Assembly (NCBI GenBank): GCA_963831235.1
Contig: CAWHPS010000066.1
Location: forward strand, 1-30,428
Origin: an uncultured Fibrobacterota bacterium
GTDB lineage: Bacteria; Fibrobacterota; OXYB2-FULL-49-7; JAEUSG01
DNA length: 30,428 bases
Reading direction: 5' to 3'
Of this stretch, positions 1,359 to 14,670 are shown piece after piece. The stretch's first letter is position 1. Each line of letters opens with the position of its first letter. The translations under genes were made by a program, and so were the position numbers. Below the pieces are notes generated by a model, which was given only the letters and a program-made list of their open reading frames with translations, was not told the DNA's origin and ran no database searches.

Positions 1359-2189
1359 ATGAAACCAATTTTTGAATATACTAATTACCGGGTCTTTCTA
1401 AAGGACTACTATGCCCACATGAAGGAGAGTACGCATTTTTTCTCCTTCCGTTTTTTTTCCAAACGGGCGGGCTTCAATTCCCCGCAAATCCTTAAGTATG
1501 TCATGGAGGGGGAACGTAACCTGGGCACTGAAAGTATCGAAAAATTCATTGTTGCCCTTACTCTCAAAAACCGAGAGGCGGATTATTTCCGGGCTCTGGT
1601 GAATTTCAACCAGGCTGGAACGGAAAAGGATAAGAGCATCCATTTCAAGGAACTCATCCGCGCCTCGGAAGGTGGGGATATCAAACAGTTGCATAAGAAT
1701 CAATATGAGGTTTTTAGCAATTGGTATTATGTCCCTATCCGGCAAATGGTCTCGCTTAATGGTTTCAAGGAGGATCCACAATGGATTGCCTCCAGTCTGA
1801 AGCCCGCCATCAAACCGGCCGAAGCCCAAAAAGCGCTTGATCGCCTCAAGGAACTGGGCATATTGCGGTACGATGGACAAGGCAAGTTGGTCCAATCGGA
1901 CGCCTTCATCAAAACCGAGGATGAAGTCCAATCCTTATGGCTCAGGAAGTTCCATAATCACATGATCCGGCTTGCCCAGGAATCCATTGAGCGGGTTCCA
2001 AAAGAGGAAAGGGAGATTAGCTCCGTTACGCTTAGTGTTCCAAAATCGGAAATTCAAAATATCAAAACCATGATTTCGGCCTTTGAAGACGAGATAATGG
2101 AAATGCTTGCAAAAAAGCCTGATGAGGCGGAAACCGTTTATCAACTTAATTTCCAGTTCTTCCCCCTAATGGAAAGGAAACCGGAATAA
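1359..2189 (+). CDS. TIGR02147 family protein (Fibrobacter succinogenes paralogous family; putative HTH regulator), copy 1
   Basis: ORF 1353..2189. The N-terminus reads MKPIFEYTNYRVFLKDYYAHMKE..FSFRFFSKRAGFNSPQILKYVMEGERNLGTESIEKF...ADYFRALVNFNQAGT. This matches the conserved N-terminal signature of TIGR02147 proteins as I recall it (YxDYRxFLKDYY ... FSYRxFAxKAG..SP..L..V..GKRNLT). It is paralogous to 10824..11642. The likely start is the ATG at 1359, since 1353 is a GTG. Confidence 0.8.
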   Translation: MKPIFEYTNYRVFLKDYYAHMKESTHFFSFRFFSKRAGFNSPQILKYVMEGERNLGTESIEKFIVALTLKNREADYFRALVNFNQAGTEKDKSIHFKELIRASEGGDIKQLHKNQYEVFSNWYYVPIRQMVSLNGFKEDPQWIASSLKPAIKPAEAQKALDRLKELGILRYDGQGKLVQSDAFIKTEDEVQSLWLRKFHNHMIRLAQESIERVPKEEREISSVTLSVPKSEIQNIKTMISAFEDEIMEMLAKKPDEAETVYQLNFQFFPLMERKPE

Positions 2190-3853
2190 TGCGACTACTT
2201 AAAACCTGTGTTGTACTCTCAATATTGTTATGGGGCTGCGGTTCCCAACCAGGGAATGTTGCGGGTAACAGTGGTACCAAGGCTGGAAACGCCATAGTGA
2301 CTGGGTTCATACGGGATCCGGGCGGTCGTATGGCTGCCGGAGTTGATGTCGTTTTGCGGGACAGGGATTTCCTCCCTGCAGGCACGCCCGGAACACCTGC
2401 GGGGTTTGGACATCAGTATTTCGCGAAAACAGATAGCAATGGCGGGTTCCATTTTTCAGATCTGGAAACCGGTCTTTATCTTTTAGAAGCCCGTAGCGGG
2501 GACACTCTCGGCACCGTGCGCGATTCCATTGACTGCAAAGGCAAATCCGGAACGGATATTAATATTGAAGATACCCTGAAGCCCGTTGGCGGAATGACGG
2601 GTATCCTGGAATTCCCGGATTCCATAGTTTATACGGCCATTACCATAGGCCTGCCGGGTTATTCCTTCCAAATAACCCCGGACTCCACGGGCTTCTTCCG
2701 ATTCGCTGGACTCTCTCCGGCAAGTTACCGGCTCCGTGTTTTCGTTCAAACGGATACGTTGGCAAGTTGGGATACGGTCCAAATCCAAATCACGGTGAAA
2801 ATCACAATTTCACTTGATACGATTTCGCTTATCAGCCATTGGCGGAGTACGAATACCTCTGGTTTCTCTCCGGCAAGCAACGGACGGATCTCCCTTACCG
2901 CATGGGATGCGTCGCCCTCGCTTGCCTACCAGCATTCCTCTCCTGATAATGGTATCAATGTCCTTGGGTTTCACCATGGAACCTGGAACAGTCTGGGTAA
3001 TTCAACCGTTTCCGGTAGCACTGCCGCGCATCCAATCTTGATACCATGGGGCCGGAATCTATTCATGTGCTATATCGACGGGGATAATGCAAACCGCCTT
3101 ACCGCCTTTATTTGGAATGGCGCCCAATGGCAACCCGCCGGTGTTCCAGGCTTCACGCCTCCGGGAATCGCCATATACGCTTTAACCGGTGATTCCTCCC
3201 AGGCGTGGGTTGGGTATGCGGACCCGGGACAGGGCGGTCGTATTACCGTGCAACGGTACTTTGGCGGGCAATGGCAGGTTCTGGGAAATCCTGGCTTCAG
3301 TTCCGGCGTTGCCAATGAAATAGCCATGGCTGTTCTGAACGGTGCGCCCATTCTTGCGTATACGGATGCCACACAGGGGAATCGAGTCACGGTGCTCCGC
3401 TTCTCCGGCGACGACTGGCAGCATCTTGGACCGGCCATTGTCTCCGATGGCCCTGTTGGTTCGCTTTGTCTGCGGGAATTCCATCAGGCGCCTGTGCTCG
3501 CCTATTGCGATTCTGCTCACGGCGCGGCGATTTCAGTCCGCTCCTGGTCGAACAACAGCTGGGCTTATCTTGATTCTCCGGGTTTCACCAATTCCCCCGC
3601 AGGCCTTGTCCGGTTGGCTGCGGATGAAGAGAAATTGGTATTAGCCTATCTGGACAATGATTTTATGAACCAAGCGCGGGTTTGTGAGTGGAATGGAAGG
3701 GAATGGAAAATGCTGAGCATCCGCAAACTACCTTATTTGCCGGCAAGGGAGTTGGATATCGCCCTGGTGAAGGGAACGCCGTGGCTCGCGGTTCTGGATA
3801 CGAAATTTACCAATAATGTTTCCGTGCTGCAATACATTAAAAGGCTTTTTTAA
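2189..3853 (+). CDS. lipoprotein with N-terminal carboxypeptidase-regulatory-like domain followed by tandem ~47-aa W/G-rich repeats (beta-propeller-like)
   Basis: Signal peptide plus Cys (MRLLKTCVVLSILLWGC). A CarbopepD_reg-like block follows (AIVTGFIRDPGGRMAAGVDVVL...TDSNGGFHFSDLETGLYLLEA). Then come at least 6 repeats of the pattern LAY.D...G.R.TV.R.....W..LG.PGF(S/T). The start ATG overlaps the upstream stop (TAATG). This gene is GC-rich relative to its neighbours. Confidence 0.85.
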   Translation: MRLLKTCVVLSILLWGCGSQPGNVAGNSGTKAGNAIVTGFIRDPGGRMAAGVDVVLRDRDFLPAGTPGTPAGFGHQYFAKTDSNGGFHFSDLETGLYLLEARSGDTLGTVRDSIDCKGKSGTDINIEDTLKPVGGMTGILEFPDSIVYTAITIGLPGYSFQITPDSTGFFRFAGLSPASYRLRVFVQTDTLASWDTVQIQITVKITISLDTISLISHWRSTNTSGFSPASNGRISLTAWDASPSLAYQHSSPDNGINVLGFHHGTWNSLGNSTVSGSTAAHPILIPWGRNLFMCYIDGDNANRLTAFIWNGAQWQPAGVPGFTPPGIAIYALTGDSSQAWVGYADPGQGGRITVQRYFGGQWQVLGNPGFSSGVANEIAMAVLNGAPILAYTDATQGNRVTVLRFSGDDWQHLGPAIVSDGPVGSLCLREFHQAPVLAYCDSAHGAAISVRSWSNNSWAYLDSPGFTNSPAGLVRLAADEEKLVLAYLDNDFMNQARVCEWNGREWKMLSIRKLPYLPARELDIALVKGTPWLAVLDTKFTNNVSVLQYIKRLF

Positions 3854-3874
3854 ACTTTCACAAAAGGAGTTCAC

Positions 3875-5365
3875 ATGTTCAACAAAATCCGTGTCATTCT
3901 CGGGAACCTCAGTGGTTTGGGATACTCGCCACTGGTGATGATCGCACTCTTCGTCCTCGTGGTGCGCACTTCAGGGGGGCTCACAGATTGGGTTTATGTC
4001 AAGTCCTTAAGCCAGCCGGGACCCAACCCTGGAATGTGCAATGTCAAAAACATCGCCATCAAAGGCGACTCGCTCTGGGCAAACACCTCCGGCGGTTTAA
4101 TGCTCTACCGCATATCCACCGGGGAAAAAAAGTTCTTCAAAAAGATCGTGGATGATAATGGCGGTGAACGCTTGACGCTGGACAGTAGTGGCGGTCTCTG
4201 GCTCATGCGCACCAACATGGGGAATGCGAGTGACTCATCGTATTACCTCAACTTGAAAACCGGTGCTTGGTCAACTTTATCAAAATTCAGTCAGAATATT
4301 ACTACGGACAAAGACGGATATGTCTGGATTCAAAAATCCGTGTGGCCGGACACGTTTGGAGGTTTGGAGCGTTTCGATGGAACGAGGTGGAAATCTTTTG
4401 ACAGACGCAATACGACTTTTCCTGCAGGTTGGAAGTCAACCAACCCGAATCCGTTTGTCGTTAATTCGATTTGTCCCTCACCCGACGGCAATCTCTGGGT
4501 TGGCTCGCAAACGCAGGGATTGTGGAAGTTTGATGGCGACTCCTTGGCTGTTGCCTTTACAACGGCAAACTACGGACTATTATCGGATGCTTATATCAGA
4601 AAAATTATCGTGGATAATGAAAGCAATATCTGGTTCACATGTGCGGAAGGTCTCATGTGTTATGATGGAATTCAAATGAAGGCTTTCCCTTTTGGGGCGG
4701 ATCTTCCCGGAAATAATCTTCTGTCCATACTATTCGGTCCCGGAAATAAAATATATGTGGGAAGCGCCACCTATGGAACCGTTTCCGGTGGTTTAGGGGA
4801 AGGCTTATCCGTTTATGATAAAAATACGAGGGGTTGGCAGAACCTGAATGCCCTAAACTCCGGATTGCCGGACAATTTCATCAACTGCCTGGCCAAGGAC
4901 AACGCAGGGCGGATCTGGATCGGCACAAAAAACGGCGGTTTGGTAAAGTTGGAGGGTGGTGTCTTTCAGACAATGTTCTTGCCCTCCATACCGAATTATA
5001 ATCTGGACGATTTTGTTTCTGACGGGCAGGGCGGCTTTTGGTTCAAGGGCCAGGGCTCTGCTCAGGGCTTAATTCATTGGGATGGTCGATCCGCATGGAC
5101 ACAGTCTTCTTCAATTATCTATCCATGGTCAATCGCAAAGGGGCCGGATAAACAACTTTGGGTTAGCGCCTATAAGCAGGGTATTACAAGTTTCGATGGA
5201 ATTTCAAAGTGGACCTCTTATGGGGAGTCCGACGGCTTGACCTGGAATACGGCGACACAGATTGCTGTTGACAAAAAAAAGGATTTGTCTGGACCAATTC
5301 GAAATATTGTGTGGGGGGCGGGACGCCCATACAAAATATGGGATTGGTTTTTTTTAACGGGGTAA
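3875..5365 (+). CDS. two-component regulator propeller (Reg_prop) repeat protein, N-terminal part (frame broken near 5273-5280)
   Basis: N-terminal signal/TM (LVMIALFVLVV). Multiple Reg_prop-like blades (DGNLWVGSQTQGLWKFDG; NESNIWFTCAEGLMCYDG; AGRIWIGTKNGGLVKLEGG). AAAGGAG RBS 6 nt upstream. The 3' end overlaps the next ORF in another frame. Confidence 0.8.
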   Translation: MFNKIRVILGNLSGLGYSPLVMIALFVLVVRTSGGLTDWVYVKSLSQPGPNPGMCNVKNIAIKGDSLWANTSGGLMLYRISTGEKKFFKKIVDDNGGERLTLDSSGGLWLMRTNMGNASDSSYYLNLKTGAWSTLSKFSQNITTDKDGYVWIQKSVWPDTFGGLERFDGTRWKSFDRRNTTFPAGWKSTNPNPFVVNSICPSPDGNLWVGSQTQGLWKFDGDSLAVAFTTANYGLLSDAYIRKIIVDNESNIWFTCAEGLMCYDGIQMKAFPFGADLPGNNLLSILFGPGNKIYVGSATYGTVSGGLGEGLSVYDKNTRGWQNLNALNSGLPDNFINCLAKDNAGRIWIGTKNGGLVKLEGGVFQTMFLPSIPNYNLDDFVSDGQGGFWFKGQGSAQGLIHWDGRSAWTQSSSIIYPWSIAKGPDKQLWVSAYKQGITSFDGISKWTSYGESDGLTWNTATQIAVDKKKDLSGPIRNIVWGAGRPYKIWDWFFLTG

Positions 5366-6195
5366 AGTGGCAGTGCTATGACACGACGAATTCGTCCCTC
5401 GTTAATAATGATTTCGTGGGGCCATGCCTTGACACAAATGGAAATGCATGGATAATATGTAAGAACGCAACCAAGAACTATTGCCTTGTCAGTTTTAACG
5501 GGACTCAATGGACAGACCCAGTAGATCTCGGGCCCATTCAAAACCCCACTTGCCTCACTGTGGATAATCAGAATAATATCTGGATCGGAACTTCTGGTTA
5601 TGGACTTTTGAAATTTACCGGAATTAGCAGCCCGCTCCAATATTTTTCCATGACCGGGACCCCGCTCCTTACAAATGATATCGCGGCATTAACAGTAGAC
5701 GGTTCTGGCAAGATTTGGTGCGGGGTGACGGATATATCCCTTAACGGCAAAGGGGGTGGGATCGCCGAATATTCAGAGGGCAACTGGACTTATTATACCA
5801 AAGACAATTCAGGATTGCCCGCCAACCAAATCGGCCAAATTTGGGCCGGCGACTCCGGGCGGATTTGGGTACTGAGCGGCGACGGGTTCTGCTCTTTCCG
5901 AGAGGAGGCTATCACAGGGTCCGAACATGCATCCCCCGCAACGCATCCGGCTTTTAATCTTGAACTGAATCCTAATCCATTCAATCCGTCTACAGTCATT
6001 TCCGTAACGGGAGCGGACCGTCCTATTGACATATCGATATTCGGTTTGGACGGCAGGAAAATCTACCATTATCCGAATCTGGCGCCGGAGGTTGAGCTGA
6101 CTTGGAACGCCCGAGGGTTCGCCTCTGGGGTTTATATTGTCAAAGCCACAGCCGGAAACCGCGTCTGCTTAAAAAAGATTTTACTTCAAAAATAG
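5311..6195 (+). CDS. Reg_prop repeat protein C-terminal part with T9SS (Por) C-terminal sorting domain; probably the continuation of 3875..5365
   Basis: More blades (NNIWIGTSGYGLLKFTG; GKIWCGVTD; GRIWVLSGDGFCSF). A C-terminal T9SS tail follows (NPNPFNPSTVISV...IFGLDGRKIYH...ASGVYIVKATAGNRVCLKKILLQK). This frame is open from 5272, and the listed start is a GTG. Confidence 0.75.
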   Translation: MGGGTPIQNMGLVFFNGVKWQCYDTTNSSLVNNDFVGPCLDTNGNAWIICKNATKNYCLVSFNGTQWTDPVDLGPIQNPTCLTVDNQNNIWIGTSGYGLLKFTGISSPLQYFSMTGTPLLTNDIAALTVDGSGKIWCGVTDISLNGKGGGIAEYSEGNWTYYTKDNSGLPANQIGQIWAGDSGRIWVLSGDGFCSFREEAITGSEHASPATHPAFNLELNPNPFNPSTVISVTGADRPIDISIFGLDGRKIYHYPNLAPEVELTWNARGFASGVYIVKATAGNRVCLKKILLQK

Positions 6196-6222: not shown

Positions 6223-7887
6223 ATGAAACTTACCTTAAAAGTCCTTTGCTTCGCGGCAATCATTGTGTTGAGCATGAGCGCTTATATCTCTGCCGCGGAT
6301 GTCGATTCCATCAGTTTTGATACTACTGTTATAGGAATGATGCCCATCGCAACTACCGTGGACATCTATCTCAACAAATACATTGCCGGAATAAGCATGA
6401 AAGTAATAGATGGATTTCTCATCACAGCATTGGAAGTTGTAAAATATGACGCTTTCGGTAATCTGGCATGGCGATACAAACGTGATTATCCGGACACTTT
6501 GGGAGACATACATCAGGCCGTAAACCCGGTAAAGGTTTTGTCGGATCCGAAGGGCAATCTCTATTTAGTTGGATATTATGCATACTGGACAGACACCTGG
6601 TCTGACACAACGGGTGTGAACCAGAACTGGCTTTACCTGCTAAAAATCGACTTATCCGGGAACTTGAGTTGGGAACGTCTCTGGCGCAAGAACGACAGTA
6701 GCTCCGTAATACCAGCGGATGCCGCTCTTGATGGGGCAAACAACCTTATTATTGGAATTAACTCCGATAATGGTATTGACGGAAATGCCGCACACTTCTC
6801 CGCGCTTATAAAATACAGCTCCAGCGGTCAGTTTCTCTGGTCCAGTTTCTATGATTTTGCGGCCACAAATAATCTGAGTTACTATTTCAACGGAATTCGG
6901 AAAGTTATTGTTCGAAACAACACCATCGGCGTTGGCGGGGATTATACCAAGTCGAGTCATTGGCTTGCCAGGGTTTCACTGGATTCGGGGCATGTCATTT
7001 GGAACAGTCAACAGACGGCAGGCGGAAGCGGCACTTTTATAGACATGGCAATGGGTCCGCAACGCGAGTTTGTCAGTCTTTCCAGAAGCGACCTGGGATT
7101 GGGGATAATGGAAAGATACGATTCCAGTGGAACGCTAAGCTGGCAAAATAATGATGACAGCACGCTCTATTTCACAACTTGCGTTGATTTTAAGGGAAAT
7201 TCCTGGGTGGCTGGAACCAAAGGCGGTAAAGCCATAGTGTCAGTCTGCAAATATAGCCCGAATGGTACAAAGCTCGCCGAAGCGAATGAACCTTTATTGC
7301 GCAATACGACTAGCTCCATTATCAAATGCGATGATTTTGGCCATGGGGTTCTTTTAAGTGAAAGCGCCAATTCTGACACTCTTTTCATTTGTTGTTACGA
7401 TACAGCGCTTAATAAAATCGTGACCTTTGCCAAACGTGTTGAAGGAGGCGTCAACGACGCACAGATTTACATCCAGGCCTTCGATAAGTTGTTGAAAAAC
7501 GGCCGGACAAAGGCAGAAACGCCTACCCGGGTTATTGTGATTGCCCAGAACTCCGTATTGGCCTCTTTTGTACAATACACTTTGCCGGACAACATTGCGA
7601 TAGACAAGAATACGTTATCTAATGCAATGAATTTGGAGCTTATGTGTGAACCCAACCCGTTCAATCCGATGGCCGTAATATCCTTCGATCTCCCGCATGC
7701 GTCTCCCGTGACGCTCAAACTCCTCCGCGTGGATGGCCAGGTCATCCGAACCCTGGTGAGAGGCATATACGCCGCAGGCCGGTACCGATTTTCTCTCAAC
7801 GGCACAGGTCTTGCCAGCGGAACCTATTTTTGCCGTATGCAGGCGGGAACACATTCATTGAGCAAGGCAATCCTATTGCAAAAATAA
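6223..7887 (+). CDS. secreted repeat protein with T9SS C-terminal sorting domain
   Basis: Signal peptide (MKLTLKVLCFAAIIVLSMSAYISA|AD). C-terminal tail CEPNPFNPMAVISFDL...LLRVDGQVIRTL...ASGTYFCRMQAGTHSLSKAILLQK. AAGGAGG RBS upstream. Confidence 0.85.
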   Translation: MKLTLKVLCFAAIIVLSMSAYISAADVDSISFDTTVIGMMPIATTVDIYLNKYIAGISMKVIDGFLITALEVVKYDAFGNLAWRYKRDYPDTLGDIHQAVNPVKVLSDPKGNLYLVGYYAYWTDTWSDTTGVNQNWLYLLKIDLSGNLSWERLWRKNDSSSVIPADAALDGANNLIIGINSDNGIDGNAAHFSALIKYSSSGQFLWSSFYDFAATNNLSYYFNGIRKVIVRNNTIGVGGDYTKSSHWLARVSLDSGHVIWNSQQTAGGSGTFIDMAMGPQREFVSLSRSDLGLGIMERYDSSGTLSWQNNDDSTLYFTTCVDFKGNSWVAGTKGGKAIVSVCKYSPNGTKLAEANEPLLRNTTSSIIKCDDFGHGVLLSESANSDTLFICCYDTALNKIVTFAKRVEGGVNDAQIYIQAFDKLLKNGRTKAETPTRVIVIAQNSVLASFVQYTLPDNIAIDKNTLSNAMNLELMCEPNPFNPMAVISFDLPHASPVTLKLLRVDGQVIRTLVRGIYAAGRYRFSLNGTGLASGTYFCRMQAGTHSLSKAILLQK

Positions 7888-9792: not shown

Positions 9793-10095
9793 TCAGGCAT
9801 GGGCGAGACTGCGGTTCCGTTTTATAGGTTCAAGGGATAACCGATATCCAATAGCACGGCTGGCTTTGAGGTAGGTCATTATATTACAATTCTCGCCTTT
9901 CTCAAGCCTGGAATATTGTTGCTGGGTTAGGTGTGCTTTCTTTGCAACGTCTGTTTGAGTTTCCCCTCTTTTCTCACGCTCTTCATTCAGCCGGTATGCC
10001 AGTTCAAGAAGTTCCTTTTCTTCTTCATGGTATTCTTTGAATTTGGGGTATTTAAGCTGTTCTTTCAGGTACTTATCAAATGATGTCATGGTCAA
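9793..10095 (-). CDS. higA: XRE-family HTH DNA-binding protein; HigA-like antitoxin
   Basis: The HTH segment TQTDVAKKAHLTQQQYSRLEKGE is typical of Cro/C1 (XRE) proteins. Its start overlaps the 3' end of the upstream toxin gene by 20 bp. Confidence 0.8.
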   Translation of the reverse strand: MTMTSFDKYLKEQLKYPKFKEYHEEEKELLELAYRLNEEREKRGETQTDVAKKAHLTQQQYSRLEKGENCNIMTYLKASRAIGYRLSLEPIKRNRSLAHA

Positions 10096-10489
10096 GCCTC
10101 CTTATCGTATTTACATTGTAGTGCTTGAGGAAATCATTTCTGTATTCCTTTGCGCGAACAATCTCTTTCTTTGGAACCTTGTCTGTTGTTTTCACAAAAT
10201 CATGCGTCAGAATAATGTAGTCCCGATAACAGAAAAAATAGAGAATTCGAGTCTGCTCACCGGATAGCTTCATTCTCAGTTCATGGATACCATCTTCAAG
10301 AATGTCTGCGAATGGACGATGCAGGCTGATTCCATGTTCCTTGAGCAACCCTATCCACGATACTGCTTTGGCACGCTCCCGTATATCCAAAGAATCGAGA
10401 AATTTGCGAATAGGACATTCTCCTTCCTCTGATTTGTAAAAATGCACCTTCCATTGTCGTTCCACTTGATAAATATACACCTTATTCAA
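10076..10489 (-). CDS. higB: type II toxin, RelE/ParE superfamily, phage Gp49-like (HigB-like)
   Basis: 137 aa. ...CPIRKFLDSLD..RAKAVSWIGLLKEHGISLHRPFADILEDGIHELRMKLSGEQTRILYFFCYRDYIILTHDFVKTTDKVPKKEIVRAKEYRNDF matches the Gp49-like (DUF891) toxin family. Toxin-first order with overlap onto an XRE antitoxin. Confidence 0.8.
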   Translation of the reverse strand: MNKVYIYQVERQWKVHFYKSEEGECPIRKFLDSLDIRERAKAVSWIGLLKEHGISLHRPFADILEDGIHELRMKLSGEQTRILYFFCYRDYIILTHDFVKTTDKVPKKEIVRAKEYRNDFLKHYNVNTIRRLDHDII

Positions 10490-10823
10490 CGTAAACGCAA
10501 ATTATTGTTTAATTGATATTGAAAATGATAACCTTTCCCGCTATGAAACCAATCATGCTGAACTCCTCAAACATTTCTCAGGTCTACTCCACCTAAAAGA
10601 TACCGGTTGAGGATAAAATAATCCATCAAAGATTAATTCACTCATTTTGTCCTGGATTCTTTTGGCTCATTTTTGAATACAATCTGGAAAAAAAGTTGTG
10701 TCGTAATTGCAGTTTGTCTTGTTTACATTTTAGAACGATTTTTTTTAATAATAGCTAATTAAACTTGTTTTATTACCTTATATTCTTTATTTTTTGTTCA
10801 CATTTATCAAGGAGTTTATTGTT

Positions 10824-11642
10824 ATGGATACACTTTATGAGTATTCAGATTATCGAAAATACATCAAAGACTACTATGAAAATAATAAAGCACGAACCCC
10901 GAATTTTTCTTTCCGTTATCTTTCTATGAAGGCTGGCATCAATTCAGCCTCCTTCTTCAAGTCCATCATGGATGGAACACGAAACTTGACAAAAAATACT
11001 ATCCTCAAAACCTGTCTTGCTCTCAAACTTGCCGACAAAGAAGCTGAATATTTTGAGAATCTGGTGTTTTTTAATCAGGCGAAAAGTATAGCAGATAAAA
11101 ATGTTTATTTTGACAGACTCGTTGGATTTCAGAAACTGAAGAACCTTAAACTTGTTAAAGAAGAAGAATATGATTTTTACGCCGAATGGTATCATTGTAT
11201 TATCAGGGAATTGGCAGTCAACTTGGATTTTAAGGACAATTTTGCTTTGCTTGCCAGTAAGATATTGCCTACCATAACAGCCAAACAGGCTGAAAAATCA
11301 GTGAGCCTTCTACTGAAGCTTGGTTTCTTAAAAAAAGAAAACAACCGATACGTACAAAGAGATCCTGTTATTTCATCTGGGAATTCAATTAAATCTCATC
11401 AGATTACCCAGTTTCAGATAAAGATGTTGCAGCGTGCAATGGAAGCCTATGACCGCAGTCAAACCGATGAGCGAATGATGTCCTCTACCACATTCAATAT
11501 ATCAAAGGAGTCCTTTGAATACTTCAAGAAGAAAATCCGTGAAATTCGATCACATCTGCTGGAAATCGCACGCACAGACGACAAATCAGACAGAATATAT
11601 CAAATGAACATTAACCTTTTCCCTGTTTCCAAAACTAATTAA
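10824..11642 (+). CDS. TIGR02147 family protein (putative HTH regulator), copy 2
   Basis: ORF 10794..11642. MDTLYEYSDYRKYIKDYYENNKARTPNFSFRYLSMKAGINSASFFKSIMDGTRNLTKNTILK...AEYFENLVFFNQAKS is the same signature as copy 1. AAGGAG RBS 9 nt upstream of the ATG at 10824. AT-rich codon usage, unlike copy 1. Confidence 0.8.
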   Translation: MDTLYEYSDYRKYIKDYYENNKARTPNFSFRYLSMKAGINSASFFKSIMDGTRNLTKNTILKTCLALKLADKEAEYFENLVFFNQAKSIADKNVYFDRLVGFQKLKNLKLVKEEEYDFYAEWYHCIIRELAVNLDFKDNFALLASKILPTITAKQAEKSVSLLLKLGFLKKENNRYVQRDPVISSGNSIKSHQITQFQIKMLQRAMEAYDRSQTDERMMSSTTFNISKESFEYFKKKIREIRSHLLEIARTDDKSDRIYQMNINLFPVSKTN

Positions 11643-11652
11643 GGAGGCTGTC

Positions 11653-13155
11653 ATGACAAGGCTATTCACGGCAATCACTCTCTTTGCTGCTCTGCTATTT
11701 CTGAATCAGTGTAACAAGAACACGCCCATTATGGCAGGTGGAGGATCGGATACTGAGAATGCGTTTGTGCAGGGTTACCTATATGATGACATCGGAAAGG
11801 TGGCTGCCAATGCCGGTGTTGTGCTGTATGCAAAACAATATAATCCCGTTGGTAATTTCCTTGATACCATTGCTGTCACGACTACGGATTCTAACGGGTT
11901 TTACAGCATTAAAAATGTGACTGCCGACGAAACCTATTTACTAAAGGGCAGCGACACTCAAAAAGAAAAGATGTATTTCGATACCCATGTCGCTCAGGCG
12001 GGATATTACCACGACACTTTGCGGATTCCGGACACTTGCATTTTTAATGACGTCCCCGATCGTGATTCTGTATATCTGTATTTCCCACGTCAGGATATAA
12101 GGTTGCCTCTGGATTCTCAGACGATAGTTTATATCAGCAATCTGCCGAAAAGAACTTATATTTTTATAGACAGAATTCCCAACGAAAGTCTTCCTGCTTT
12201 CACCGCAATCTGCAATCGGAGCTTGCTCGAGGATCTGGTTATCCTGTTAATTTATAAGATTCGTGGATCCCTTTATGCCCCTTTCAGCTTTCAGGAGGAC
12301 GCTCGCAAGGCAGGGTACGAATATGTTACATGGTTTCCGCGCAGTCCGGATACCAGCGAAATCAAATGTATGGCCATAGATGAGTACAACCAACGGATAT
12401 TGATCTGCTATCGAAACAACATTAAAGCTTTTTCCAAGACCGGTGAATTGTTGGGAGTAGTTATTTCGGATAGTAATATTAATTCATTGACTCTGACGGA
12501 TAGAAGTACGATATTCGCAAGTTGCAACCAAACATTTCCAGTGTCCATCATCAGGAAATATACGAACGGTGTATTGTCAATGCAGATATCGAATTATGGA
12601 GATAGCGTTTCGCCCCTGCCTTGGGGACATGCTGCAACAGATAAAAACGGCAATATTTATGTTATGCCCCATACTTTTTTTAATGGTGAAAGACCATTCA
12701 TACAGAAGTTTGATCCTTCAGGCAAGCCTATTGCACGATGGGACGATACAAATGCTGTACATTTTGAAAATACGAATTATTTGGACGGCTTGAATATAGG
12801 GTATCAGTTGGATGTGGATAAAGTCCGAGGCATTGTTTACATGCTTAATCCCGGAAATTCCAGAATACTACGTTTCGATACAGCAGGGAGTTATCTTGGC
12901 GACATAACAGGTTTGCCTTATTGTTCTTTCAACGTCATGCGGTTGGCTCCTAATGGCAATATTTATGTGGCGACCTATACTCAAATAACGGCTTGGTCTC
13001 CCGACGGACGCCTGTTGATTTCCCTGCCAAGCCACTTTTTTGGTCCCGGTGATATGTGTATCAGCAGTGAAGGGGTGATTTACTTGGTCAATGGTGTTGG
13101 AAACTGGATAGATATCTATTATCCGGAAAGTTTACATTACGTACTGCCTAAATAG
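11653..13155 (+). CDS. lipoprotein with carboxypeptidase-regulatory-like N-domain and NHL/SMP-30-like beta-propeller repeats
   Basis: Signal plus Cys (MTRLFTAITLFAALLFLNQC). CarbopepD_reg-like block (AFVQGYLYDDIGKVAANAGVVLYAK...TDSNGFYSIKNV). NHL-like blades (NGNIYVMPH; RGIVYMLNPGNSRILRFD; NGNIYVATY; EGVIYLVNG). GGAGG RBS 6 nt before the ATG. Confidence 0.85.
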   Translation: MTRLFTAITLFAALLFLNQCNKNTPIMAGGGSDTENAFVQGYLYDDIGKVAANAGVVLYAKQYNPVGNFLDTIAVTTTDSNGFYSIKNVTADETYLLKGSDTQKEKMYFDTHVAQAGYYHDTLRIPDTCIFNDVPDRDSVYLYFPRQDIRLPLDSQTIVYISNLPKRTYIFIDRIPNESLPAFTAICNRSLLEDLVILLIYKIRGSLYAPFSFQEDARKAGYEYVTWFPRSPDTSEIKCMAIDEYNQRILICYRNNIKAFSKTGELLGVVISDSNINSLTLTDRSTIFASCNQTFPVSIIRKYTNGVLSMQISNYGDSVSPLPWGHAATDKNGNIYVMPHTFFNGERPFIQKFDPSGKPIARWDDTNAVHFENTNYLDGLNIGYQLDVDKVRGIVYMLNPGNSRILRFDTAGSYLGDITGLPYCSFNVMRLAPNGNIYVATYTQITAWSPDGRLLISLPSHFFGPGDMCISSEGVIYLVNGVGNWIDIYYPESLHYVLPK

Positions 13156-13195
13156 CGATAGTTCAAAGCGTCAAATTTAAATAAAGGATTTTCCA

Positions 13196-13624
13196 ATGCT
13201 TTTCTTCCATTCAAAAAGAAATGGTCATCCTGTAAACATATATTTATCTGTTTTTATTACCCTATTGGGATTCTTGATTCAGAATTGCAAAATAGGTCCC
13301 GTGATTCCGGAGACCGTGAGCGGGTGCAATGTGACCATCACTATGAATAAATCCATTTATGGAGCAGATTCTGTTTCTCAATCAATACAGGCAATATTTA
13401 CCAATGTTGGAAGTACTTATATTGAAAACAATAAATGTCACATCCGCGTGGACGGTTTGGACATGGTGCGCATCCATGCTGATGAGAACACTGCCACTTT
13501 TAATATTGCTTCAGACCGGTTGGCGATCTTACCTGATTCGCTTTATGTATTTGTAGCTGCACTTGATAATGGATTGACTGTCGAAACATCCACGGATTCT
13601 CTTAGAACACTTAGATTTATTTAA
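13196..13624 (+). CDS. small hypothetical lipoprotein
   Basis: 142 aa. Signal LSVFITLLGFLIQNC. AAAGGA 7 nt upstream. No recognisable family. Confidence 0.55.
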   Translation: MLFFHSKRNGHPVNIYLSVFITLLGFLIQNCKIGPVIPETVSGCNVTITMNKSIYGADSVSQSIQAIFTNVGSTYIENNKCHIRVDGLDMVRIHADENTATFNIASDRLAILPDSLYVFVAALDNGLTVETSTDSLRTLRFI

Positions 13625-13719: not shown

Positions 13720-14670
13720 TTATGTCCTGACATTTCCCTTAAAAGGGGTCTCCTTGTTGAAATCAGGAAAGAATTCATTGTCACTATCATCAGACTGACA
13801 AAACATATTCTCAAAGCCCAAATCCAAAGCCGCATCCAGTACCTTATGATATTCATCCGATGAAACAGGCCTTTCAAAAGCACTCATACCTTTACAATAA
13901 ATCGTTGGATAATATTGGTTCATAAGCGATATTGGAAGGTATTTTCCAAAACGTTCCCGCAGTAATTTGAGCGCATCGATGGAGTTTTGAACAGCGCCAG
14001 GCAACACAAGATGACGCACCAATACTCCACGGCTTGCAGGCTTGATTTCCTTGTCATCAAACGAAGAATCAAGAAATCCTTTTGCGTCAATCATAATCTC
14101 AATTGCACTCAGCGCGACTTCCTTGTAATCTCTTTTGCCCATGCAATAGGATGCAAGATTGTTATCCGCAAACTTGAAATCAGGTAAAAAGATATCAACA
14201 TATTCCGCCATTTCTTTTATAATCTCAATTCGCTCATATCCTGAGCTATTTATCAGATTTGGTACAACTATGTTCCGGCTTTTCATCCATTTGATGAGTT
14301 CCCTGATATGGGGCCAGAAATGGTCGGGTGTGACATAATTGATATTGTGAACACCTTGCTTGGCAAGTAATTCAACCTTTTCGCAGAACAAGTGAAATGA
14401 ATAAGGCGAACCTATTCCATCGCGGGAAATTTGATGGTTCTGACAAAAGAAACAGCCCGTAGAACAACCGGAAAAAAATACGGTTCCGGATCCCTTAAAA
14501 CCTGAAATAGGCGGCTCTTCTCCGAAATGTGGCGCAATTGAGGATATTAGCAATTGATCTGATTGACCGCAAAAGCCTATGTTCCCGGCTGTCCGATGAG
14601 CCCCGCACTTACGGGGACAAAGAAAACAATGACGATAATCAGTCAATGAGAAACCAGACTCGGAAATCAT
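13720..14670 (-). CDS. radical SAM protein, PflX-like (homolog of pyruvate formate-lyase activating enzymes, COG1313-like)
   Basis: CSTGCFFC (CxxxCxxC) radical-SAM cluster motif. About 316 aa, with PflA/PflX-like overall layout. Starts 4 bp after the upstream band-7 gene. Confidence 0.8.
   Translation of the reverse strand: MISESGFSLTDYRHCFLCPRKCGAHRTAGNIGFCGQSDQLLISSIAPHFGEEPPISGFKGSGTVFFSGCSTGCFFCQNHQISRDGIGSPYSFHLFCEKVELLAKQGVHNINYVTPDHFWPHIRELIKWMKSRNIVVPNLINSSGYERIEIIKEMAEYVDIFLPDFKFADNNLASYCMGKRDYKEVALSAIEIMIDAKGFLDSSFDDKEIKPASRGVLVRHLVLPGAVQNSIDALKLLRERFGKYLPISLMNQYYPTIYCKGMSAFERPVSSDEYHKVLDAALDLGFENMFCQSDDSDNEFFPDFNKETPFKGNVRT

Follow-up and report, generated by a model that had tools for sequence, protein, structure and literature searches.

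A probable autoregulated operon, repeated in Fibrobacterota genomes, that pairs a TIGR02147 regulator with a modular envelope protein

Introduction

Local autoregulation by XRE/Cro-type proteins is known from P22 C2, the 434 repressor, HigA, and C.AhdI, whose partners are a toxin, a phage function, or a restriction-modification enzyme. Here, we describe a comparable arrangement in a stretch of 30,428 nucleotides (nt) from an uncultured Fibrobacterota bacterium (GenBank assembly GCA_963831235.1, contig CAWHPS010000066.1, positions 1 to 30,428, which make up the complete contig), referred to as the window. It contains two cassettes, termed copy 1 and copy 2, in each of which a gene for a TIGR02147/DUF4423 protein is followed by a gene for a predicted lipoprotein, and our analysis centers on copy 2 (positions 10824 to 13624). 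The arrangement works like local autoregulation, but the regulator has no match to Pfam HTH_3, its predicted helix-turn-helix (HTH) is joined to a winged helix and a helical hairpin, and its partner is predicted to be an exported lipoprotein.

TIGR02147/DUF4423 is a large paralogous family characteristic of the Fibrobacterota, which are important fiber degraders. The copy 2 regulator is a full-length member that scores above both family cutoffs, and NCBI classes the family as a "paralog" family. It is named and has no assigned function, and the definition of TIGR02147 comprises no obligate partner, motif, or candidate operator. A phylogenomic study of the phylum covers TIGR02145 and TIGR02148 only, and our literature search retrieved no paper on the pairing, on the lipoprotein motif, or on a likely DNA site of the regulator. 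The cassette family, its motif, and its candidate operator do not appear to have been described before.

The Fibrobacterota share a superphylum with the Bacteroidota. The polysaccharide utilization loci of Bacteroidota are, as generally known, alike in that many paralogous loci each possess their own regulator and a lipoprotein with carbohydrate- or protein-binding modules, such as CBM, LamG, LRR, and propellers in the cassettes. Unlike those loci, the cassette has no SusC/SusD, no membrane-spanning sensor, and no extracytoplasmic function (ECF) sigma/anti-sigma pair, and its regulator lacks a recognizable sensor domain. A further point of comparison is the Bacteroidota lipoprotein export signal (LES), which occupies positions +2 to +6 relative to the Cys, where its position is critical, and includes the sequences SDDDD, SDDFE, and K-(D/E)2 (Lauber et al. 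2016, PMC5080379). The cassette partners resemble LES proteins in carrying a short polar-plus-acidic motif (S/T-D-T-E) near the mature N terminus; it differs from the LES in that its S/T lies 4 to 22 residues after the Cys, is preceded by an invariant Gly-Gly, and in the DNA examined is limited to the partners of TIGR02147. Finally, the six-bladed NHL propellers of TRIM2/3/71, Brat, and Thin match the C-terminal ~260 residues of the copy 2 lipoprotein in phmmer and Foldseek searches, although this domain has no direct match to Pfam NHL and its structural model is of low confidence.

TIGR02147 genes and their partners recur as a pair

The reading that we favor, with a probability of roughly 60%, is a bicistronic operon under its own control: a locus-specific transcription factor of the XRE/winged-helix type regulates a modular envelope protein that is anchored through a Cys. 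Copy 2 would then represent a two-gene operon of which many copies exist in each genome across the Fibrobacterota. We fetched 80 genome loci, of which three were excluded since the regulator runs off the contig. In 76 of the 77 usable loci, the gene downstream of TIGR02147 encodes a product in which a leader and a Cys precede the motif that is treated in a later section. Only L037 departs from this pattern: its downstream open reading frame (ORF; 5824 to 6012) has its first few codons in common with the L036 partner (MKTRN...) and then differs, which points to gene disruption or a break in the assembly. The overlap between regulator stop and partner start amounts to 4 nt in 39 loci; most of the remaining loci show an overlap too. 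Several metagenome-assembled genomes (MAGs) each supplied three to five different loci, and the cassettes are thus paralogous within genomes. We defined the partner family as the genes located right behind TIGR02147 that encode a leader with the invariant Cys and, no more than ~25 residues further on, GG-x-[ST]-[DE]-T-[EG]-[TVN]. Copy 2 belongs to this family, with a 10-nt gap between the genes, Cys20, and AGGGSDTEN at residues 28 to 36.

The first gene of copy 2 (10824 to 11642, + strand) encodes a TIGR02147/DUF4423 protein of 272 amino acids (aa). The predicted structure places an XRE-type HTH at residues ~10 to 100, a winged HTH at ~113 to 180, and a helical hairpin at 191 to 251. Both HTH parts, which are predicted for TIGR02147 proteins, are DNA-binding-type folds, and the predicted fold of the regulator is like that of HigA-type antitoxins. 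The start at ATG 10824 agrees with the family alignment, and the upstream TTG at 10794 does not. The protein scored 270.7 bits against TIGR02147 in NCBIfam (272 model positions, curated cutoff of 50 bits), with residues 3 to 270 aligned to model positions 3 to 271, and 119 bits over residues 111 to 268 against DUF4423 (PF14394; gathering threshold of 30 bits). These scores bear out the second TIGR02147 gene that the original prediction had placed here, and the regulators of copies 1 and 2 align with 33% identity (BLASTP E value of 2e-51). Orthologs of the copy 2 regulator with 50 to 73% identity are common among Fibrobacterota metagenome bins. A tblastn search of plasmids with the regulator gave no match.

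A candidate operator upstream of the regulator

A palindrome emerged from the side-by-side comparison of upstream regions across loci; searching the upstream region for simple repeats had given nothing useful. The strict pattern GTT[TCA]AC-N4-[GT][GTA][ACG]AAC had 49 matches in the 689 kb of fetched DNA, compared with ~3 in shuffled sequences, and 33 of these 49 were located at -905 to -964 from the partner start, that is, ~85 to 130 nt upstream of the regulator ATG. The looser 16-bp pattern GTTNNC-N4-GNNAAC, which was counted in a 121-nt interval at the family position, was found in 39 of 72 loci, compared with 0.35 expected, and 24 of the matches are perfect palindromes. The inner bases of the arms vary from one regulator clade to another, in step with the predicted recognition helix sequence. 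Arms GTTTAC/GTAAAC occur with helix ..FFKF.., GTTCAC/GGCAAC with ..FYKY.., both GTTCAC/GTGAAC and GTTCTC/GAGAAC with ..FL[YF]YV.., and GTTTCC/GGAAAC with other helices. The label of "regulator" that the gene had been given is thus backed by the predicted HTH fold and by a conserved palindrome.

In copy 2, the candidate operator O1 (GTTTAC-ATTT-TAGAAC, positions 10721 to 10736) is an imperfect 16-bp inverted repeat that lies 88 to 103 nt before the ATG and at -932 from the lipoprotein start, where the palindromes of the other loci are also placed. In comparison with the two closest loci, L005 (GTTCAC-AAAA-TAGAAC) and L001 (GTTTAC-AAAT-ATAAAC), it stands out as a conserved island against diverged flanks. 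A putative -10-like element, TATATT (10779 to 10784, + strand), has counterparts of the form TAnnTT at the equivalent place in many related upstream regions; a scan for sigma-70 promoters and terminators gave no signal above chance. Comparison within the copy 2 clade points to a proximal half-site, GTTCAC (10796 to 10801), flanked by the -10-like element and the Shine-Dalgarno (SD) sequence, and TGTT[TC]AC is present 10 to 30 nt before the ATG in L005, L006, L007, L008, and L010 of this clade and in some other loci.

A second palindrome was observed in 10 loci, and both of its arms equal those of the first site in 8 of them. In L009, L012, L026, L045, L046, and L048, it is located 4 to 40 nt past the partner stop and ~65 to 95 nt before the next gene, a spacing like that of the upstream site to the regulator start. 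Its arms are identical to those of the first site in five of these six loci, and one arm differs in L046. The next genes in L045 and L046 encode fasciclin-like lipoproteins. The position of these palindromes ahead of a further gene suggests that the regulon may extend to neighboring genes.

An alternative that we consider unlikely is that TIGR02147 does regulate the cassette, but that GTTNNC-N4-GNNAAC is a promoter element or is recognized by a different, shared factor. The core GTT...AAC is common to all clades, 33 of the 72 loci have no palindrome by the simple pattern, and a few copies are distant from any cassette, all of which speak for this alternative. The clade-specific inner positions, the sharing of arms between first and second sites, and the constant distance to the regulator start argue for the regulator itself as the binding protein, as does the spacing of the half-sites by one helical turn, which, as is generally known, suits an HTH dimer.

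A peptide motif restricted to the partners of TIGR02147

The Cys was invariant in all 73 aligned partners, and the preceding position was G, S, or A in 55 of them. In essentially all partners it is followed by a motif of one of two types, [AS]-G-G-[GASW]-[ST]-D-T-E-[TVN] and, for other clades, G-G-[ST]-[EH]-[TV]-G-N-[PA]. Its S/T comes 4 to 22 residues past the Cys, with a median of 11 and a value of +12 in copy 2. We scanned all fetched DNA for the strict motif, which was required to fall inside the 26 residues that follow a Cys. This yielded 53 matches in 2,648 long ORFs, and in all 53 cases the gene directly upstream encodes a TIGR02147 protein; one of the 53 belongs to a second cassette in L076 that had escaped notice before. 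The codons of the motif are free to vary at synonymous sites, which indicates selection on the peptide and rules out conservation as DNA or RNA. One regulator clade (L067, L068, L070, L072, L074, L078, and L084) is paired with ~450- to 490-aa lipoproteins that have kept a GGTHTGNP-type motif, followed by a different, non-CarboxypepD_reg domain for which no Pfam match was noted. The motif, and not the beta-sandwich, is therefore the universal feature of the partners. In the AlphaFold2 (AF2) model of the copy 2 protein, the motif falls in a low-confidence and probably flexible stretch that joins the anchor to the first beta-sandwich.

Several known types of signal were compared with the motif. 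Identity with the Bacteroidota LES was rejected on the basis of position, since residues +2 to +6 of copy 2 read N-K-N-T-P, which contains neither K-(D/E)2 nor S-(D/E)n, and the acidic motif begins at +12. A function as a general lipoprotein sorting signal was rejected for the fetched DNA, given that every strict match follows TIGR02147. The motif fits neither a TonB box nor the Bacteroidota O-glycosylation sequon D-[ST]-[AILMTV].

Proposed model and its weak points

In the operon that we propose, gene 1 would encode a cytoplasmic transcription factor composed of the XRE-type HTH, the winged helix, and the helical hairpin. A dimer would most likely bind the 16-bp inverted repeat ~85 to 130 nt before its own start, with the half-sites one helical turn apart, and in the copy 2 clade the regulator probably also contacts the proximal half-site beside the -10-like element. 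Through this binding, whether as an activator or as a repressor, the regulator would control its own operon. The translation of gene 2 would be coupled or nearly so, and its product would be exported and anchored via the invariant Cys, at which we infer lipidation. The Cys would be followed by a flexible motif tether (AGGGSDTEN in copy 2), which may bind a target of its own, by a beta-sandwich stalk, and by an exchangeable binding module, in copy 2 an NHL-like propeller. Each cassette would accordingly comprise one modular envelope binding protein and its dedicated regulator.

The peptide motif and the operator are the most informative features of the cassette, and neither was part of the original prediction. 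What is gained is a testable function for the family as locus-specific transcription factors, a candidate operator with clade variants, an obligate target, and a specific motif. If confirmed, the model would permit genome annotation at the level of cassettes, and CBM, LamG, LRR, and propeller domains would mark a regulated envelope binding repertoire in a phylum without Sus-type loci.

Several observations weigh against this model. A full-text literature search found no paper on TIGR02147, and the sole mention of DUF4423 was in a Bdellovibrio proteome table (Bd3700). Pfam HTH_3, HTH_31, and HTH_19 gave no match to the copy 2 regulator at an E value of ≤0.1, so that the HTH assignment depends on the predicted structure. 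The loci without a clear palindrome, almost half of the 72, belong here as well. O1 itself is degenerate: three of its six arm positions pair, which is within chance for the window alone. The match between arm variants and recognition helices tracks phylogeny and is therefore not independent evidence. As for the partner, the lipobox of copy 2 (LNQC) is noncanonical with respect to [LVI][ASTVI][GAS]C, and the AF2 model of the 11653 to 13155 product is poor, with a mean predicted local distance difference test (pLDDT) score of 55. Furthermore, a plain local regulator leaves unexplained why an exported motif is tied so strictly to one regulator family, which provides room for a feedback or chaperone-type link.

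One such link would make the pairs self-contained sensory units, in which the motif of the exported partner links back to its own cytoplasmic regulator. The winged-helix part of DUF4423 might, for example, bind precursor that has not been exported or an N-terminal fragment that has been released, or the motif might dock all cassettes on one shared envelope machine that is read by the regulators. Although this would account for the tie of all 53 strict motifs to a single cytoplasmic DNA-binding family, we regard it as rather unlikely. It also appears quite improbable that TIGR02147 is a cytoplasmic partner, that is, a chaperone, targeting, or antitoxin-like factor, that recognizes the lipoprotein precursor via the motif. 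Translational coupling would keep the two products at a constant ratio, the motif is exclusive to the partners of this family and selected as a peptide, and the fold resembles HigA-type antitoxins; on the other hand, the protein has two DNA-binding-type folds and a clade-specific palindrome upstream of its gene, the motif lies past the signal peptide cleavage site in the exported part, and the partners show no toxin-like feature.

Exchangeable C-terminal modules

In the first three contexts inspected, the gene next to the regulator encoded a lipoprotein that starts with CarboxypepD_reg, the remainder being absent (129 aa), DUF2341 plus LamG, or PKD plus FGE-sulfatase. This picture was extended by a Pfam analysis of 73 partners, which detected CarboxypepD_reg in 51 (E value of ≤1e-3). 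The C-terminal modules of the 73 partners included LRR (15 partners), DUF2341 plus Laminin_G_3 (12), CBM6/35 (3), Reg_prop (2), PKD (2), Kelch (1), and FGE-sulfatase (1). NCBIfam contained no model covering the shared N-terminal region; one partner matched TIGR02171, which is itself a further Fibrobacter lipoprotein family. A search with the N-domain alignment profile returned at least 14 matches. The suggestion that C-terminal modules are swapped behind a fixed regulator and N-terminal module therefore holds across the phylum. In the copy 2 clade, the C termini differ and are NHL (this locus), FGE-sulfatase (a 73%-identical relative), DUF2341-LamG, or none. The identity of the regulators correlated with that of the N-domains (Pearson r = 0.62), and the clades largely retain one partner type, from which we infer that most of the diversification took place long ago and does not reflect current shuffling.

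Could the cassettes be mobile or recombining, with the palindromes at their ends acting as sites for the integron-type exchange of whole cassettes or C-terminal modules? The palindromes flank the unit in several loci, the C-terminal modules differ among close regulator relatives, and the two copies in the window are far apart in GC content. We nevertheless judge this very improbable, considering that no recombinase or integrase is located beside either copy in the window, that the partner type is constant from genome to genome in most regulator clades, that the downstream palindrome has the geometry of the promoter-linked operator, and that the module junctions lie away from the palindromes. 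A chance adjacency, or a tandem duplication in this region with no functional connection, would be favored by the presence of just two copies in the window and the weak BLASTP similarity of their partners (E value of 2e-5). It is already refuted by the pairs in 76 of 77 loci from many MAGs and by the placement of all 53 strict motifs behind TIGR02147, and the profile matches of ~1e-15 reported below also argue against it.

The copy 2 lipoprotein

Under the autoregulated operon model, the second gene of copy 2 (11653 to 13155) encodes the envelope protein. Its 500-aa product has a hydrophobic leader that terminates at Cys20 (L-N-Q-C; 11653 to 11712, + strand), in agreement with the signal-peptide/Cys protein that had been predicted directly after the regulator. 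The motif A-G-G-G-S-D-T-E-N, identified by alignment, is encoded at 11734 to 11760 (+ strand) in a predicted flexible tether, pLDDT being <50 for residues 24 to 35. It is followed by a CarboxypepD_reg-like beta-sandwich (residues ~37 to 100; 11761 to 11952, + strand) that is modeled as beta strands with a pLDDT of ~80. The middle region (residues ~101 to 235; 11953 to 12357, + strand) has no clear fold (pLDDT of <50), and residues 1 to 190 match other partners in tblastn and phmmer searches. The C-terminal part (residues ~236 to 495; 12358 to 13137, + strand) is a putative NHL-like beta-propeller.

The protein reached 19.8 bits (E value of 1e-3) against CarboxypepD_reg (PF13620), which is below the threshold of 32.3 bits. 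We compared both N-domains, with signal peptides removed, with a partner profile that was built from other genomes only. The hhalign E values were 6.6e-15 for copy 2 (probability of 98.4%) and 8.5e-16 for copy 1, so that the two N-domains are indeed similar; the direct BLASTP alignment of the two lipoproteins extends over residues 3 to 67 and includes the signal peptide. Since copy 1 and 51 of the 73 partners match the CarboxypepD_reg model, the N-domain of copy 2 can be called CarboxypepD_reg-like by homology rather than by its own score. The original prediction of such a domain shared by both copies is thus supported.

A phmmer search against 1.84 billion cluster representatives matched 727 proteins, nearly all of them via residues ~210 to 495 and most of them NHL-repeat proteins, and the matches of the C-terminal half carry PF01436. 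The copy 2 protein itself had no direct match to PF01436 (NHL) and showed only subthreshold matches to Reg_prop and SBBP. When the propeller part of the AF2 model was submitted to Foldseek, the top matches were the NHL domains of Thin, TRIM2/3/71, and Brat (E value of ~1e-8). Both searches are consistent with the NHL-like C-terminal module that had been proposed. There was no full-length ortholog among the cluster representatives, which makes the combination of domains in copy 2 unique so far, and an exact-sequence lookup of the 500-aa protein returned no record.

Residues 8 to 105 (11674 to 11967) showed a weak match to TIGR04134, a "radical SAM-associated putative lipoprotein" family (E value of 0.024), and a convergent radical SAM gene (13720 to 14670, - strand) lies just downstream of the cassette. 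We judged a real link between the two to be improbable and the finding to be probably a coincidence.

Gene layout, copy 1, and neighboring genes

The three ORFs of copy 2 (10824 to 11642, 11653 to 13155, and 13196 to 13624) were confirmed at their predicted coordinates. Their SD sequences, also as predicted, are AAGGAG for the regulator (10809 to 10814), GGAGG for the lipoprotein (11643 to 11647), and AAAGGA for the small ORF (13183 to 13188), all read from the + strand. The second abuts the TAA stop of the regulator, with whose letters it reads AAGGAGG. The AT richness ascribed to copy 2 was evident in a GC content of 0.34 to 0.42 (10500 to 13500), compared with 0.48 to 0.54 in copy 1 (2000 to 4000) and a contig mean of ~0.43. 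The relatives of the proteins encoded in the window are from Fibrobacterota MAGs, all proteins that were looked up form singleton clusters, and Rfam gave zero matches in the window.

The small ORF (13196 to 13624, + strand) encodes an orphan protein of 142 aa with a leader ending in LIQNC. It forms a singleton cluster, has no Pfam or NCBIfam match, and has no relative in 84 loci. It lies downstream of the pair, has its own SD sequence, and is probably cotranscribed with the pair; a small ORF at this place is in line with the original prediction. Its proposed role as a conserved part of the unit was rejected, since the third gene varies between loci and many loci have none. In the clade of L016, L025, L028, and L052, which has ~210-aa "SDTETLTG" partners, the third gene is a conserved one that encodes ~300 aa with a twin-arginine-type leader, and in the related loci L011, L017, and L019 a ~410-aa protein is encoded instead.

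Copy 1 consists of a gene for a 278-aa TIGR02147 protein (1353 to 2189, + strand; NCBIfam E value of 1.3e-83, 280.6 bits) and a gene for a 554-aa partner lipoprotein (2189 to 3853, + strand), the start of which overlaps the regulator stop by 1 nt. The partner has a degenerate motif, A-G-N-S-G-T-K-A-G-N, and scores 42.7 bits against CarboxypepD_reg, which is above the threshold. The candidate operator of copy 1, GTTAAC-AAGCT-GGTAAC (1286 to 1302), has a 5-nt spacer, lies at -903 from the lipoprotein start, and is the sole match in the window (0.12 expected). The sequence TG[TG]TAACA occurs three times upstream of the copy 1 regulator (1219 to 1226, 1285 to 1292, and 1296 to 1303), which also permits a reading of this candidate operator as direct repeats in place of an inverted repeat.

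The copy 1 cassette is directly followed by two overlapping ORFs (3875 to 5365 and 5311 to 6195, + strand), each of which shows Reg_prop repeats along with partial matches to PorZ-like proteins. A type IX secretion system (T9SS) sorting domain lies at the end of the second, and the two may be one gene broken by a frameshift or sequencing error. A further gene (6223 to 7887, + strand) encodes 554 aa with a weak, subthreshold match to a T9SS C-terminal sorting domain and to no other family. Immediately upstream of the copy 2 promoter region, and divergent from it, a Gp49/HigB-like gene (10076 to 10489, - strand; PF05973, E value of 2e-19) overlaps an HTH_3 gene (9793 to 10095, - strand), and the two form a probable toxin-antitoxin pair.

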